A program made the translations under genes and the position numbers. 64,000 bases of DNA. Origin: Candidatus Kaiserbacteria bacterium. GTDB lineage: Bacteria; Patescibacteriota; Minisyncoccia; Phycocordibacterales; Phycocordibacteraceae. The stretch lies in contig JARIGM010000017.1 of NCBI GenBank assembly GCA_029288865.1, positions 7,131-71,130 of the forward strand. Direction: 5' to 3'. Positions 9,350-31,853 of the stretch are shown in pieces (position 1 is the first letter of the stretch; each line of letters opens with the position of its first letter). Under the pieces are notes generated by a model, which made no database searches, was not told the DNA's origin, and worked only from the letters and a program-made list of their open reading frames with translations.

Positions 9350-9793
9350 ATGACCGCGCTCTCTACAACCATCAAGCAAGCAATAGCCGGGCATCTCGAT
9401 GCACTCAAGGAAGGCGGCACGCTCGGCGCGTATCTCGTGCAGGACTTCCGCGAGAACATCCTCGACACCGATTTCCCAGGATTCCCATGCGCCGTGCTCC
9501 TACCGCCCTCCATCGGAAGCGTCGAAGACACGAACGACTCGAACATGCGCACCTACACGTTCGACATCGTGTTCGTGCAGAAGAAGGAAAACCTTGCAAG
9601 CAGCACCGATCTCGAAGAGCTGATCGAAGCGGTGCTCGACGAGTTCGATAACGATGTCACGCTCGGCGGCGCGGCGACCGCGGGACTCCCGCCGTCCGCG
9701 AGCGAGCCGGACGAAGTCACCTCGGCAGACCAGACCTACGTGGCGTTCGTCGTCACGCTCCGGCCGCGAGCGATTAGAAACATAACCCTATAG
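9350..9793 (+). CDS. tail completion/terminator-like protein
   Basis: 147 aa, in order after the head-tail adaptors. Confidence 0.4.
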   Translation: MTALSTTIKQAIAGHLDALKEGGTLGAYLVQDFRENILDTDFPGFPCAVLLPPSIGSVEDTNDSNMRTYTFDIVFVQKKENLASSTDLEELIEAVLDEFDNDVTLGGAATAGLPPSASEPDEVTSADQTYVAFVVTLRPRAIRNITL

Positions 9794-9795
9794 CC

Positions 9796-10008
9796 ATGAT
9801 TACGAATTCAAAAAACAAGGCAGTCGAGAGTCCGAACAGCGAGCAGCTCGAGGACTATCACTTCGCGGGAAGCGGCGAGTACATCCCTCAGACCGTGCGC
9901 GCCAAGAGCAGGCAGGCGGCCGAAGAGGAATGGCGCCGCACCCGGAAGCCGGTCAACGCGCCGGAAGCGCCTGCGGCACAGACCGATCCACTACCAGAAC
10001 AACCTTAA
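9796..10008 (+). CDS. small hypothetical protein
   Basis: 70-aa ORF in the co-linear module. Confidence 0.3.
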   Translation: MITNSKNKAVESPNSEQLEDYHFAGSGEYIPQTVRAKSRQAAEEEWRRTRKPVNAPEAPAAQTDPLPEQP

Positions 10009-16610: not shown

Positions 16611-17111
16611 ATGGCGATCGCAAACGGACAACCTGCTGATGCTTCCGACATCTCGGAGATCGTGCCTGCGGGCACGGTACTTCCGTATGCCGGCGCATCG
16701 GCTCCGACCGGCTACCTCATGTGCGATGGAAGCGCGGTCTCGAGGACGACCTATGCGGCCCTCTTCGCGGCGATCGGCACCGCGTTCGGCGCGGGGAACG
16801 GCACGACTACATTCAACGTTCCCGATCTCCGCGGCCGAGTCCCAGTCGGAAAGAATGCGGGAACGTTCTCGACACTCGGCGCGACTGGCGGCGAAGAAAC
16901 GCATCAGCTTACCGCAACAGAAATGCCGAGCCACAGCCATAACATCCGTCTCAATACGGGTACGGGTTCTGGTACGGCACCAGCGCAGCACGGGTCGAAC
17001 GGATCGACTCTCAACTTCAGCAGCGACAGCGTTGGATCGGATGGCGCACATAACAACCTCCAGCCGTACCAAGTGCTGAACTACATCATTCGCTATCTCA
17101 TCTATTCCTAA
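16611..17111 (+). CDS. tail fibre protein with phage tail-collar domain
   Basis: ...PAGTVLPYAGASAPTGYLMCDGSAVSRTTYAALFAAIGTAFGAGNGTTTFNVPDLRGR... matches the tail-collar domain. Confidence 0.65.
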   Translation: MAIANGQPADASDISEIVPAGTVLPYAGASAPTGYLMCDGSAVSRTTYAALFAAIGTAFGAGNGTTTFNVPDLRGRVPVGKNAGTFSTLGATGGEETHQLTATEMPSHSHNIRLNTGTGSGTAPAQHGSNGSTLNFSSDSVGSDGAHNNLQPYQVLNYIIRYLIYS

Positions 17112-25555: not shown

Positions 25556-25584
25556 TTGACATAAGGGGCTATATGTGATAATCT
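25556..25584 (+). promoter_or_regulatory. sigma70-like promoter TTGACA-17-TAATCT upstream of the DGR target gene
   Basis: Consensus -35 with 17-nt spacing to a TAATCT -10, about 140 nt upstream of the target ATG. A 16-bp imperfect hairpin at 25620-25673 lies in the leader. Confidence 0.45.
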
Positions 25585-25720
25585 CTACCCCGAGAATGGT
25601 CTTTGAAAAGGTTCAGGAATGAGGCGAGTTTTTTGCTGCTTTCCAAGGCATTAGAAAACTCGTCTCATTCGAGACAGTCGCTACCCCGAGCGCTTCGGGA
25701 ACTACCAAAGGAGAACGACG

Positions 25721-26530
25721 ATGACGACTCAGTCGATCACGTCCGACCAGTCCAAGCAGTTCAAGCGTTTCGTCGAGGACGCGAGCGATCGCGCCCTCAA
25801 GGACGTCAACCCCGACAAGGACGGCCTGCAGCGTCTCATCGAGCGCGGCGGCGAGTTCCAGGCTTACCTCCTGGCCGGCATCAGCCGGTTCACGAGCAAG
25901 CTGCCGGACTACACCCTGGCCCGTTCGATCCTCGGCAACGACTTCATCTCCGCCGACGAGATCATGACGGCCCGCGGCGTCCAGTACACCGAGGATCAGC
26001 TGATCGAGCTGGGGCGCAAGCTCCCCGATCAGGCCACGCTCGAAGCGATCCGCGATGCCGGCATGATGCTGGTCGCGGGCCCGCCCACGGCGATGTCGAT
26101 GCTCGACGTCCGCGCCGTCCATGCCGACTTCTTCTACTCGAAGGGGCCGGAGCAGGACGATTCGGGCTGGTACGACGATGCCGGCGAGAAGTTCGCGCGC
26201 AACGACAAGACCGATGCGCTCGGCTGGATCGCGTTCCGCAAGGAGCCGGTCGAAGACTCGCTGTCGAAGAACTGGGAAGAGCAGCAGGCGCTCGTCGCCG
26301 AGCCGATGATGATCCCCAACGCCGCCGAGGCGACCTGGGCGCTGACGACCTTCAAGGCCGTCCGCGACATCTATCTGCTCGACGAGCTCTACGTTCGCAC
26401 CAGTTCGGTCGACTCGGACGGCGACCGCGTGGACGTCGGCGATTTCGATGCCGATGGCCTCGACGTCCGCAGCTATTGGGACGACCACCGGGACTCCAGC
26501 TTGGGCGTTTCGGCGTCTCGGAAGTTCTGA
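25721..26530 (+). CDS. DGR target (variable) protein with C-terminal C-type-lectin-fold variable region
   Basis: Among three overlapping high-GC ORFs, this frame encodes the VR in register with the TR AAC/AAT codons (TR: DGNRVNVGNFDADGLNVNNYWDDNRNSNLGVSASR; VR: DGDRVDVGDFDADGLDVRSYWDDHRDSSLGVSASR). Confidence 0.8.
   Translation: MTTQSITSDQSKQFKRFVEDASDRALKDVNPDKDGLQRLIERGGEFQAYLLAGISRFTSKLPDYTLARSILGNDFISADEIMTARGVQYTEDQLIELGRKLPDQATLEAIRDAGMMLVAGPPTAMSMLDVRAVHADFFYSKGPEQDDSGWYDDAGEKFARNDKTDALGWIAFRKEPVEDSLSKNWEEQQALVAEPMMIPNAAEATWALTTFKAVRDIYLLDELYVRTSSVDSDGDRVDVGDFDADGLDVRSYWDDHRDSSLGVSASRKF
26409..26521 (+). repeat. DGR variable repeat (VR)
   Basis: 113 bp identical to the TR except at 11 positions, all of which are A in the TR (A to G x9, A to C x2). 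A GC-rich imperfect hairpin (26572-26596) follows the target stop. Confidence 0.85.
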
Positions 26531-26882
26531 ACCTCGAACCCTTGAGGACTTGATCCTCTTGAATCCTTGAACCCTCGCGCGCTTGCGCGGGGGTTCTTTC
26601 TTTTGATACTATCGACCTATCTTGCTAATGAAGGCCCGGCTACGGTTCGGCCTCGCGGGATGTCTCGCCTCAAACTCGTCAGAGTGCCGGCGTCTACGGA
26701 TTACGGCAGAGCGCGAAGAGGATAGAGATTGAACTTCTTGTCCGCTCCTGGTGGAGATGTTCCTCGAGTCGCATCGGGAGCTGCTCCCGCAATATATTCA
26801 GGATCGAGAGGATATAGGGATGAGGTGCAAGCCCTCCGGCAAACCTCAAGGTCTGGTGATAGGGATGGGGGTGGACAAATTT

Positions 26883-26996
26883 CTCGACTCGGACGGCAAC
26901 CGCGTGAACGTCGGCAATTTCGATGCCGATGGCCTCAACGTCAACAACTATTGGGACGACAACCGGAACTCCAACTTGGGCGTTTCGGCGTCTCGG
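26883..26996 (+). repeat. DGR template repeat (TR)
   Basis: Cognate of the VR. The adenine-specific mismatch pattern identifies it as the invariant template. The ORF-track ORF 26751-27242 covering it is not considered coding. A hairpin (aaatcccgcc tttc ggggcgggattt, 27019-27047) follows. Confidence 0.85.
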
Positions 26997-27049
26997 CAGT
27001 CGCCTCTCTATCCAAGCGTAAAATCCCGCCTTTCGGGGCGGGATTTATG

Positions 27050-27406
27050 CTACCGCTCTTTCGTGGACTTTATCCATCCTCCGAGCATCCTTCCGATCTC
27101 GTCGATCTTCGTCTCGAGGGAGACGTACTTCTTGTTATCGATGGCCTTCACATCGCACATGAGGCGGATGAAGACGCGCAGTAGATTCAGCTTCATGCTC
27201 GCTTCTTCGAGCGCAGGGAGCTTCTCTGCCTTCGCAGTCTGACCGGCCAGGAGAATGCTCTCGAGCATCTCGACCATCAGCGTCTCGCACTTCTGCCAAA
27301 TGGTGTAGCGGTCTTGCTTAGGGACATCGGCGCGGTATCCATAAAAGACCTTATACAGATCGTAGGACTTCTTAAAAATCGGCGTATCAAATTCATTCAT
27401 AGGCAT
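27050..27406 (-). CDS. avd: DGR accessory variability determinant (Avd; four-helix-bundle, 23S rRNA IVS-protein family)
   Basis: 118 aa. ...FKKSYDLYKVFYGYRADVPKQDRYTIWQKCETLMVEMLESIL...LNLLRVFIRLMCDVKAI... is characteristic of Avd/IVS proteins. Lies between TR and RT on the opposite strand. Confidence 0.7.
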   Translation of the reverse strand: MPMNEFDTPIFKKSYDLYKVFYGYRADVPKQDRYTIWQKCETLMVEMLESILLAGQTAKAEKLPALEEASMKLNLLRVFIRLMCDVKAIDNKKYVSLETKIDEIGRMLGGWIKSTKER

Positions 27407-28433
27407 GAAAGTTTATAGGGACATATACGGGCAAATAATTTCGCCGGAGAATCTCTTCGCCGCGTGGCGCGTTTTCAAGAACGACAAAAGGAACAAGCCG
27501 GATGTCGTCAAATTCGAGCGCCACCTCGAAGAGAATATTTTTCATCTGCACCGGGAACTTCGCGACAAGACGTACAGGCACGGAGGCTACTACGGCTTCT
27601 GGATTCGCGATCCGAAGCTGCGGAGGATTCATAAGGCCACGGTGAGAGATCGGGTGTTGCACCACGCCATATTCAGCGTCCTCAATCCTCTCTTCGAGCC
27701 GACATTCATTCCCACATCCTTCTCGTGCCGCGTGGGGAAAGGAACCCATAAAGGTGTCGAGAAGATCGCCGAGATGCTGCGCGCGGAAAGCCGGAATAAT
27801 ACGAGACCCTGCTTTGCGCTGAAGTGCGATGTGCGGAAGTTCTTCGATAGCGTCAATCACGAGACCCTCGTCGGCATCCTCGAGCGGAAGATTAAGGACG
27901 CTGATGCGATGTGGCTCCTGCGAGAGATCGTCGACAGCTTCTCGGACGAGAAAGGCATACCGATCGGGAACCTCACTTCGCAGCTTTTCGCTAACCTCTA
28001 CATGAACGAGTTCGACCAGTTCATCAAGCAGGAAATGAAAGTGCAGCGCTACGCTCGGTATACGGACGACTTCATCATCGTCTCCCGCGATGAGGCATAC
28101 CTCGCCGGACTGCTCCCGGTAATAGGGAGATTCCTTGCAGAGCGGCTGGCGCTTGAGCTGCATCCCAGCAAGATCACAATTCGAAAGTATCGGCAGGGAA
28201 TCGATTTCCTCGGCTATGTGGTATTGCCGGGGCATACAGTAGTTAGAACCAAAACGCGGAAGCGCATGTTCCGAAAGCTCCGCGGCAGGGTAAGGCAGTA
28301 CAAAAAAGGGGCTATCCCGGAAGAGACTCTCTTCGGGTCGTTGCGCTCGTATATGGGAGTGTTGTCGCATGCGGATGCTTCACAACTGGAAGAGGAGTTG
28401 AAAAATGATTTCTGGTTTCGCCTTAAGGAGTGA
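27405..28433 (+). CDS. DGR reverse transcriptase
   Basis: DGR-specific motif 4 IPIGNLTSQLFANLYMNEFDQF and motif 5 RYTDDFIIV. N-terminus IYGQIISPENLFAAWRVFKNDKRNKPDV is typical of DGR RTs. Confidence 0.9.
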   Translation: MKVYRDIYGQIISPENLFAAWRVFKNDKRNKPDVVKFERHLEENIFHLHRELRDKTYRHGGYYGFWIRDPKLRRIHKATVRDRVLHHAIFSVLNPLFEPTFIPTSFSCRVGKGTHKGVEKIAEMLRAESRNNTRPCFALKCDVRKFFDSVNHETLVGILERKIKDADAMWLLREIVDSFSDEKGIPIGNLTSQLFANLYMNEFDQFIKQEMKVQRYARYTDDFIIVSRDEAYLAGLLPVIGRFLAERLALELHPSKITIRKYRQGIDFLGYVVLPGHTVVRTKTRKRMFRKLRGRVRQYKKGAIPEETLFGSLRSYMGVLSHADASQLEEELKNDFWFRLKE

Positions 28434-28700
28434 GCGGACACAGAAAACCCGCCACGGGTCCCAGCGTGAGCCAGGCGTACAGGTTTCCCCATACGGCGAT
28501 CAAGCATCCCCATGACGGGTTTTCTATGCTTGATCGCCTTTTTCGCCATGCCCCCAGCCGAAGCTGGAGGTTTAGGCTACTTTTTCTTATTCAGTTGTTC
28601 CTAAATCATAGCCTGCTTCCAGCCCTCCGCACAATGGCCAGGGGATAGGGTCAATGCCGGCCCCGCTGACAGCGGGAAGGGCACGCGTTATAGTGGCTTT

Positions 28701-30776: not shown

Positions 30777-31853
30777 GTGGGCTTCAAGCTATATATGCGT
30801 CTCAGCCAAGTCATCGATGAATTCAACAAAGTGCGAACCTTCCGCGGTTCGCGCCTTACGACTGCCCGATACGATCGGCTGCTTCGTATTTTTTGCCTGT
30901 GCATGCAAGACCCGGAACTCGAGGAGATCGATCTCCCGCATGTCCTTTGGTACTTCGGCGAACTAGAGCGCCTCGGCTGGAAGCCGAACGGCATAAACCT
31001 CATCGCTATCGCTCTTCGCAAGCTCTTCGAATTCTGCAACCTTCGCGGCTATACCACTTTCAACGAGCAGCTCATCCCGGTGCCGCGAAAGGAATTCAAT
31101 ATCCCGCGCGTTGCCGATCTCGAGACGTTCGAGAAGATTCTCAAGGAGATACCGGAGAATTCTCCTCGGCCTCATCACATCCGCAACCGGGCATTCCTCC
31201 TGCTCTTGTGGGATACCGGCGCGCGAGTCGGCGAGATATGCTCGCTCGACGTAAAAGACCTTGATCTCAAGAAGCGCACCGCAATCATCAAGACTGAAAA
31301 GTCTCGCGGTCGCCGTCCGGTGCGACAAATATTCTGGACGCCAGAGACCAACAAGCATATCAAGGCATGGCTCGACAAGAAGAATCATCTGCAAACGCTT
31401 TTTAAGTTCAATGACCCGGAAGCGCTCTTCGTCTCGATCGCCAAGTCAGGGCAGTACGATGTACGCGGCTCTCGCATGAACAGCCGCGGCGCGGCGGAGA
31501 TCATGCGCATGCTCTCGAACCGGGCAGGCATTCCAGTGGTCAACGCGCACTCGATACGACATTCAATGGGACGCGATACCGTCCGCACGCTCCGAAGCAA
31601 TTCGGCCGTATCGAACGTGCTCGGCCATTCGAATCTCGACAGCTCCTACATCTATACGATGCTATGGGGCGAGGACTTGAAAGAGGATTGGTCCAAGGTC
31701 ATGAAGAGCCGCGGCACGCCTCTGGCAGAACCGCCGCGCGCAGCAGGAAATTTCCCGCGCATGAAGAAGAGCCGGAACGAATCGAATACCCAAGGTCGCC
31801 TGCGTCCTGTCTCATTCAAGACAGGGAAGTACGGTCGCATGACGAGTCAGTAG
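30777..31853 (+). CDS. tyrosine site-specific recombinase / phage integrase
   Basis: C-terminal catalytic region with ...RGRRPVRQIFW..., HSIRHSMGRD and LGHSNLDSSYIYT (R...HxxR...Y). Sits at the 3' edge of the prophage-like block, preceded by a 360-bp noncoding region. Confidence 0.8.
   Translation: MGFKLYMRLSQVIDEFNKVRTFRGSRLTTARYDRLLRIFCLCMQDPELEEIDLPHVLWYFGELERLGWKPNGINLIAIALRKLFEFCNLRGYTTFNEQLIPVPRKEFNIPRVADLETFEKILKEIPENSPRPHHIRNRAFLLLLWDTGARVGEICSLDVKDLDLKKRTAIIKTEKSRGRRPVRQIFWTPETNKHIKAWLDKKNHLQTLFKFNDPEALFVSIAKSGQYDVRGSRMNSRGAAEIMRMLSNRAGIPVVNAHSIRHSMGRDTVRTLRSNSAVSNVLGHSNLDSSYIYTMLWGEDLKEDWSKVMKSRGTPLAEPPRAAGNFPRMKKSRNESNTQGRLRPVSFKTGKYGRMTSQ

Follow-up and report, generated by a model that had tools for sequence, protein, structure and literature searches.

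Diversity-generating retroelements (DGRs) of bacteria of the candidate phyla radiation (CPR), including those with a reversed avd gene and with non-membrane target proteins that lack known domains, have been catalogued since 2017. Their order of template repeat (TR), avd and reverse transcriptase (RT), termed architecture B3, was reported for 90% of a CPR DGR set (Wu et al. 2018, PMC5758913). The same study found 'essentially no information' on phage association of these elements, and the DGR clade 2 of a later survey was almost wholly cellular (Roux et al. 2021, PMC8144416). A second point of reference is the DGR of Bordetella phage BPP-1, with the order mtd-avd-TR-brt. Here we describe a DGR in a 64,000-nt stretch of contig JARIGM010000017.1 of a Candidatus Kaiserbacteria bacterium, which was analyzed at its full length and is called the window below. 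A preliminary description of this DNA had proposed a complete DGR, comprising a target gene with a variable repeat (VR), a TR, Avd and RT, in a CPR-type genome. All of these components were confirmed, and relatives of the cassette came from Patescibacteria. The DGR is complete and represents a typical new member of the B3 class known from CPR bacteria, and we estimate at about 85% the probability of our overall explanation, in which it belongs to the integrase-proximal arm of a prophage. The core components, in window coordinates, are as follows.

25721-26530, + strand: target (variable protein) gene, 269 aa, isoelectric point (pI) 4.5, with an N-terminal helical region and a C-terminal domain of predicted C-type lectin (CLec) fold
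26409-26521, + strand: VR, the last 37 codons before K-F-stop (codons 230-267 of 269)
26884-26996, + strand: TR, with 25 adenines and 9 AAY codons
27050-27406, - strand: avd, 118 aa (PF22296, NF033474, phrog_3206)
27405-28433, + strand: DGR reverse transcriptase, 342 aa (RVT_1, phrog_1423, 8ub7_A)

In an ungapped alignment at an offset of 475 bp, VR and TR were 113 bp each and differed at 10 positions, every one of which (10/10) was an adenine in the TR (8 A>G and 2 A>C). With 25 adenines in the 113-nt TR, the hypergeometric p value of this adenine-only pattern was 5.3e-8. Read in the frame of the target, all 10 changes affected AAC/AAT codons, at their first or second base. The preliminary description had likewise assigned every mismatch to a TR adenine and placed the variable adenines in AAC/AAT codons, and its TR reading ...DSDGNRVNVGNFDADGLNVNNYWDDNRNSNLGVSASR was found in the translated sequence. 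Its VR coordinates and its two A>C changes also stood, but the alignment gave 10 mismatches rather than 11 and 8 A>G changes rather than 9, and its TR start at 26883 was one base early because the extra column is a non-adenine mismatch. Columns flanking the repeat are non-adenine mismatches, and the repeat stops at the next column (26522 A vs 26997 C). Together with Asp and Tyr codons, the nine AAY codons of the TR give approximately 10^14.8 encodable peptides. The 3′ end of the VR (26503-26521) is free of adenine, GC-rich and the same as in the TR, resembling an initiation of mutagenic homing (IMH) sequence. Features of IMH type were present, including this GC-rich common 3′ end, flanks that diverge past 26521/26996 and inverted repeats downstream of the VR; the downstream hairpins and the common 3′ end may act as IMH elements. 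No other VR-like copy or remote target was found within the 64-kb window.

The RT matched RVT_1 and, at 1e-120, phrog_1423. Its closest solved relative and sole strong full-length match was 8ub7_A (E 7.6e-49), which we take to be the bRT of BPP-1. In this comparison, IGNLTSQLFAN aligned to IGSLTSQLFAN and YTDD to YMDD. These two RT motifs, already pointed out in the preliminary description, are indeed present, and the motif, structure-relative and PHROG matches agree with the signature of the DGR clade, in which IGNLTSQ represents (I/L)GxxxSQ instead of QGxxxSP and YTDD represents YxDD. Models for group II introns, retrons and DRT scored far under their cut-offs. Judged by these sequence comparisons, the RT is of DGR type and bRT-like, and its relatives came only from Patescibacteria. 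The Avd product exceeded the cut-off of the NCBIfam equivalog NF033474 (85 bits vs 80), which bears out its earlier assignment to the Avd family, and also matched PF22296 (1.1e-18, 68 bits vs a cut-off of 40) and phrog_3206. The two genes are head-to-head, with a spacing of -2 to +10 nt in about 20 loci. Since their starts abut, either the promoter of each gene is located inside its neighbour or transcription of the RT runs antisense through avd. In the window itself, the start codons of avd (- strand) and RT (+ strand) share one CATG at 27404-27407.

Compared with BPP-1, the window DGR is alike in adenine-specific transfer from TR to VR, in possessing Avd and in being phage-borne. It also shares full-length RT homology with the same IGxLTSQLFAN motif, a CLec-fold target (predicted here) with a C-terminal VR, and a GC-rich common 3′ end with a hairpin downstream of the VR. 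It differs in that avd is on the opposite strand, head-to-head with the RT, in that a large structured RNA is located 5′ of the TR and not 3′ of it (Sp), and in that the target is outside the tail module and has many chromosomal homologues.

The closer match is to CPR DGRs. A scan of species-representative genomes yielded 60 loci, nearly all from Patescibacteria, and approximately 22 of them, as well as a further locus, L001, had the same order of target, TR, reversed avd and RT. When 19 cassettes were compared to their own TRs, 14 had 0 non-adenine mismatches and two more had 2-3, and all 19 had 10-21 adenine-site differences between VR and TR. Some related loci carried two or three VR-bearing paralogues. 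The window cassette corresponds to architecture B3: avd is located between TR and RT and is encoded on the other strand, as in about 20 Patescibacteria loci. The orientation of avd given in the preliminary description was therefore right, but nothing about it is unusual, as B3 is the standard architecture of 90% of CPR DGRs (PMC5758913). The window DGR is like the described CPR B3 DGRs (PMC5758913; 'clade 2', PMC8144416) in reversed avd, host phylum, single C-terminal VR, a target with neither a transmembrane segment nor a known domain, and RT relatives restricted to Patescibacteria. It differs from them in residing inside an identifiable prophage, and its membership of clade 2 is putative.

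Besides the protein-coding genes, the cassette contains several putative RNA and regulatory elements, most of which are shared with its relatives.

25556-25582, + strand: putative promoter (TTGACA ... GATAAT) preceding the target gene, read from the sequence
25590-25720, + strand: structured 5′ leader of the target mRNA, conserved (fold z -3.4; RNAalifold)
26531-26596, + strand: non-coding stretch downstream of the VR, with CTTGA repeats and two hairpins
26706-26883, + strand: structured RNA domain 5′ of the TR, ~180 nt (19-locus alignment, RNAalifold)
26720-26728 with 27005-27013, + strand: P0 helix, 3′ strand UCUCUAUCC, bracketing the 5′ domain and the TR
27021-27046, no strand assigned: hairpin between TR and avd stop (stem of 10-12 bp, UUCG-type loop), present in all 19 loci with variable sequence

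Alignment of 19 cassettes revealed conserved structure in the VR-TR interval of ~360 nt. In the domain 5′ of the TR, helix P1 (26738-26749/26867-26878) encloses P2 (26753-26787) and P3 (26801-26854), and 33 of 40 pairs showed compensatory changes. On the alignment, 92.4% of cells were paired, compared with 76% in column shuffles (0/500 reached the observed value) and 36-54% when partners were slid. A covariance model of the domain found matches only beside TRs and on the RT strand, including seven loci outside the training set, five of which are IMG/VR contigs. Two of these contigs were inspected (L069 and L070); they carry a TR/VR of a different sequence family, and the mismatches of L070 were at TR adenines in 20/20 cases. 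Rfam, including its RT-n motifs, gave no match at E <= 5 for either the TR-flanking RNA or the target leader. Covariation thus supports the domain 5′ of the TR, which is confined to these cassettes, has no Rfam counterpart and appears to be uncatalogued; it had escaped the preliminary description. In the window, all nine pairs of P0 are perfect; over the set of loci, 79.6% of its cells were paired, and 8/9 pairs had a compensatory change. It is weaker than the rest of the RNA structure, in part owing to a less reliable alignment of this region.

Only 53 nt separate the TR from the avd stop, occupied by a conserved 17-nt motif CAGUCNUCUCUAUCC, which holds the 3′ strand of P0, and by one hairpin. 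A BPP-1-type structured spacer (Sp) directly 3′ of the TR is thus absent, and the multi-helix domain is found 5′ of the TR instead. The hairpin at 27021-27046 serves as the terminator of avd on the - strand. BPP-1 RNA has an Avd-binding stem-loop (10.1101/2023.10.23.563531), and, by analogy, the + strand of this hairpin is possibly such a stem-loop or the end of the TR RNA. P0, which pairs the flanks of the TR, resembles the cPRT-stop duplex of BPP-1 DGR RNA. Our hypothesis is that B3 cassettes retain the flank-pairing helix and have the large protein-binding domain joined to its 5′ strand. The cited DGR-RNA survey covered just 40 nt upstream of the TR.

Downstream of the VR, a hairpin GAGGAcuugaUCCUC at 26544-26558 is followed by a GC-rich terminator hairpin at 26569-26596, detected by a terminator scan. 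This element of ~65 nt was conserved in most loci, including those in which the target gene is an orphan. Its stem changes coordinately (GAGGA/UCCUC to GAAGA/CCUUC), and it was 87% identical between the window and an orphan locus (L027) whose upstream coding DNA is 47-77% identical to that of the window. Such a pattern points to a likely role in target recognition, as an IMH-flank or hairpin element.

The 5′ leader of the target mRNA contains a long hairpin (25617-25670) with the conserved stem GAGRCGAGYUUUUUG / CAAAARCUCGUCUC, as well as a competing GUCUC/GAGAC pairing, followed by a small CCCGAG..CGGG hairpin and the ribosome-binding site. It was found upstream of 14-15 homologues, both DGR-linked and orphan; the lower stem is conserved in sequence and the upper stem covaries. 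RNAalifold predicted 27 pairs, 13 of which had compensatory changes, and the single-sequence fold had a z of -3.4. The competing pairing looks like an attenuator. An 18-nt direct repeat, GATAATCTCTACCCCGAG at 25577-25594 and GACAGTCGCTACCCCGAG at 25673-25690, flanks the leader hairpin. A TTGACA box occurs at the same place upstream of target homologues, and the site at 25556-25582 may represent the promoter of the target gene; it was missed by a consensus scan because its spacer is 15 nt. The cassette and its relatives thus define a set of testable RNA elements (5′ domain, TR-bracketing helix, VR-downstream element and target leader), which could explain how B3 DGRs function with no 3′ spacer.

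The genomic setting of this DGR was recognizable as a prophage, and the following features are relevant to its position.

16611-17111: tail-collar fibre protein
28460-28578, - strand: LOOT RNA (RF03000), 78.4 bits vs a gathering threshold of 46.4, model positions 1-121
30777-31853: tyrosine integrase, 2.3 kb right of the RT

Positions 1-18.4 kb encode terminase, a portal with a Mu-F domain, protease, major capsid protein, adaptors, a tail protein, tape measure, the tail-collar fibre and lysin. After lysin come a C5 methylase, two genes with no assignment, a ZorD/DpdE-like SNF2 helicase and an unassigned 403-aa protein, and then the DGR. To its right are LOOT RNA, a Cys-rich 79-aa protein, a TrpR-like protein, a 341-aa protein and the integrase, which is succeeded by the host genes rpiB, rpe and tkt (transketolase). 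The 341-aa protein had no family match, and its counterpart in L001 has a weak Pribosyltran match. L001 has the target-to-integrase segment and the host junction in common with the window and differs in its upstream phage-like genes, which identifies the cassette as part of an integrase-proximal accessory arm. We conclude that the DGR most likely belongs to this arm, with defence-like cargo on one side and the integrase on the other, and that the prophage is siphovirus-like. The preliminary description had placed it at a prophage edge; the cassette is near the integrase end, but GC content does not mark a boundary here. The window thus offers a clear case of a CPR-type DGR in a recognizable prophage, an association left open by the surveys (PMC5758913, PMC8144416).

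Mobile-element markers were present within 10 kb of 7/21 DGR-bearing and 3/45 DGR-less loci (Fisher p = 0.009). LOOT RNA, a small RNA candidate described only from metagenomes, is represented in the window by a copy of the full model, 27 nt past the RT stop and antisense to the RT. It was detected within 10 kb of 8/21 DGR-bearing loci, always antisense to the RT, and of 1/45 DGR-less loci (Fisher p = 0.0003), and most LOOT-bearing DGR loci also had terS/terL or an integrase. LOOT is not known as a DGR-linked RNA; here it accompanies DGR-bearing phage-like elements at a variable distance from the RT, and phage-like elements of CPR bacteria may be its usual carriers. A small element consisting of a ParB-methylase, a methylase, terS, terL and a B3 DGR recurred in six loci (L008, L028, L030, L034, L070 and L072). 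A large serine recombinase was next in L008, L034, L070 and L072, where the sequence extends far enough. No portal or capsid gene followed terL, and L070 and L072 are 'viral' contigs of IMG/VR. This recurring terS/terL-DGR element may be a satellite-like or reduced CPR phage element.

The target is an acidic protein with no Cys. As stated in the preliminary description, the 269-aa open reading frame (ORF) at 25721-26530 encodes no signal peptide, and neither an export signal nor a transmembrane segment was found. That description had also called the VR CLec-type, and a C-terminal fold check agreed, giving a predicted C-type lectin fold. Searches of Pfam, NCBIfam, PHROGs and PADLOC returned no family match for the target. 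Across 40 family members, Pfam gave no consistent match, and Foldseek comparison of the target with PDB and BFVD gave no significant match. We found 246 word-indexed homologues, none of them named and all labelled ones from Patescibacteria, and a profile search extended the family to 2,419 clusters (50% identity). Conservation is centred on a core of residues ~60-269, and many members have just 200-220 aa. In an alignment of 40 members, hypervariable columns occurred only at those templated by TR AAY codons. Compared with CLec/FGE-like variable proteins (TvpA 2y3c, TaqVP 5vf4, Mtd 1yu0), the target has no FGE-sulfatase, DUF1566 or other Pfam match, and its preceding helical region is unrelated; TvpA (2y3c) has a lipoprotein/secretion signal, which the target lacks. 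A side observation concerns a 298-aa homologue (P0025) on a 19-kb Logan contig, whose C-terminus after the VR reads ...GVSASRQSPLYPSVKSR..., a translation of the window sequence 3′ of the TR and not of the VR. This suggests either VR-TR recombination with deletion of the spacer or assembly collapse of both repeats.

By analogy with BPP-1, the cassette would work as follows. A + strand RNA would be made that includes the structured 5′ domain (26706-26883), the TR and a 3′ tail with the hairpin. P0 would join the flanks of the TR, and RT and Avd would bind the RNA. The TR would then be reverse-transcribed with random misincorporation opposite adenines, and the cDNA would replace the VR, with the GC-rich 3′ end common to both repeats and the conserved hairpins past the VR as guides. 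In this way, nine Asn codons, along with Asp and Tyr codons, would be randomized at the C-terminal face of the CLec-fold domain. Several points weigh against this account and the setting proposed for it. The functional RNA elements of BPP-1 lie 3′ of the TR, and here the TR RNA has putative ends, a putative priming site and a 5′ domain whose role is inferred. The route of RT transcription is problematic, since the RT start codon overlaps that of avd and a hairpin precedes avd. Only 10/25 adenines differ, and 8/10 changes are A>G, for which selection, a single homing round or age are possible reasons. Evidence on the ligand and location of the target is indirect, and its function is the weakest step of the explanation. 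In addition, no att sites were found in the window, and the left end of the prophage falls outside its 64 kb, so that the arm from DGR to integrase could be a separate island.

Such an island, an independent integrative element adjoining the prophage (~25.5-31.9 kb), would account for several observations. L001 has the segment, with 83-92% amino acid identity for target, avd, RT, the 79-aa protein and the TrpR-like protein, along with the host junction, and its upstream phage-like genes are unrelated except for a methylase. GC content falls from ~59% to ~53% near the cassette, and other cassettes reside on the small MTase-terS-terL-DGR-serine recombinase elements with no visible structural genes. 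However, neither a second recombinase nor an att-like repeat was found between the segment and the phage genes, a terminal integrase with cargo after the lysis genes is the usual prophage layout, and sharing of one arm is frequent in mosaic phages. We regard an independent island as unlikely and retain the accessory arm of a single prophage as the location of the DGR.

A rival explanation is that the target acts on the virion as a receptor-binding protein of the tail tip, with the DGR switching phage tropism as in the case of Mtd of BPP-1. Several observations make this improbable. Lysin and ~7 kb of methylase/helicase cargo part the target from the tail module (10-17 kb), and the target is 8.6 kb past the tail-collar gene, which provides a separate fibre. 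It has its own promoter-like site, structured leader and terminator. The protein is small and contains no recognizable tail-attachment domain. Homologues stand alone among housekeeping genes; one of them, on a contig of 672 kb, has scpB/HAD on one side and scpA on the other. No target homologue was found in IMG/VR (0 matches), though related RT/avd cassettes with other targets occur there, and no viral structure was matched. Its position outside the tail module, its own regulatory signals, the stand-alone chromosomal homologues and the lack of IMG/VR relatives all argue against a receptor-binding role on the virion. We lean slightly towards the target being a 'moron'-like accessory protein that is self-contained and binds within the cell or at the cell surface, where it would recognize a changing partner, in either defence or interaction with a host or partner. 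A recognition role on the cell side fits its position among defence-like cargo.

It is very unlikely that the cassette is an inactive relic in which the VR/TR differences are old and retrohoming has ceased: 40% of TR adenines are changed with a strong A>G bias and decayed cassettes are known in the family, such as a 30-aa RT remnant by an orphan target (L004), but all ORFs, catalytic motifs and cis RNA elements are intact, the window has 0/88 non-adenine mismatches compared with 5-22 in decayed orphans, and, at ~31% of adenines changed per round in BPP-1 (PMC12875486), 40% would correspond to one or two recent rounds. The window DGR is probably active now, and its earlier description as 'active-looking' was reasonable. 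Indirect support comes from the sister lineage represented by L001, whose RT is 86% identical: P0002 and P0269, which fall into the same 90% cluster, have 3/229 differences in their upstream residues and 14/40 in the VR.

In approximately 33 loci, neither RT nor avd nor TR lay within 10 kb of the family member, and most of these orphans retain the ~65-nt VR-downstream element. In L004, on a 553-kb Patescibacteria contig, the DGR RT remnant (9712-9801, 57% identical) is located just upstream of the orphan target, implying that some orphans arose via cassette decay. We searched for imprints of the window TR on VRs elsewhere by treating every A of the TR as N. Matches were found in three other records. 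The first, L027 (10500-10612; assembly DATDXU01), encodes a 232-aa short form with 60% identity to the target, in a Paceibacterota metagenome-assembled genome, and a DGR is absent from the 10 kb around it; L066, from a metagenome, has an identical sequence. In L067 (1139-1251), the target is 79% identical. The VRs of L027/L066 and L067 had 0/88 non-adenine mismatches to the window TR, with 17 and 16 adenine-site differences, respectively, and the coding DNA just upstream of the L027 and L067 VRs was 47-77% identical to that of the window. A metagenome scan for VR variants of the window TR found two contigs only.

The 0/88 mismatches indicate that a TR identical at every non-adenine position wrote onto different target alleles elsewhere. 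In E. coli, a plasmid-borne DGR edits chromosomal targets in trans (PMC12875486). Cassettes of this type probably also act in trans on chromosomal members of the target family to which they are not linked, and diversification of unlinked family members by mobile cassettes is the simplest reading of the TR imprint. Unlinked targets bearing such an imprint make it possible to test for diversification of host proteins by mobile DGRs in trans; they also narrow the question of what non-secreted CPR targets do. Tentatively, we suggest a broader possibility, that B3 DGRs use a rearranged, effectively circularly permuted RNA (P1-P3 in ~160 nt 5′ of the TR, and P0 reaching to the TR 3′ end, the place at which priming has to begin), travel with LOOT on phage-like elements and rewrite in trans unlinked, chromosomally encoded targets from a very large family of cytoplasmic CLec-fold proteins. 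The domain that recruits RT and Avd would sit 5′ of the TR because the inverted avd leaves no room for a 3′ spacer. If this is true, the prophage would reprogram a recognition protein of its host and not its own tail.

The GC content of the cassette was also assessed. Values for target, avd and RT were 65%, 52% and 53%, in agreement with the contrast noted in the preliminary description, but its interpretation of this contrast as prophage versus host side did not hold. A prophage boundary was rejected because the integrase is 2.3 kb further right and because the contrast is a family-wide trait. Target GC exceeded that of the flanks in 52/54 loci whatever the host, by a mean of 11 points, and RT GC was below that of the flanks in 16/16 loci; avd, too, was poorer in GC than its surroundings. 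In the target family, GC content at third codon positions (GC3) was 0.8-0.9 where host GC3 was 0.2-0.8, and it was 0.90 in the window target. Adenine occupied 1.5% of third codon positions in this gene. Adenine avoidance was considered and rejected, since A and T were depleted at third positions to nearly equal extents in the family (ratios 0.50 and 0.59), in agreement with a general rise in GC3. Mobility, expression bias and biased gene conversion are possible causes of the high GC3 of the target family.

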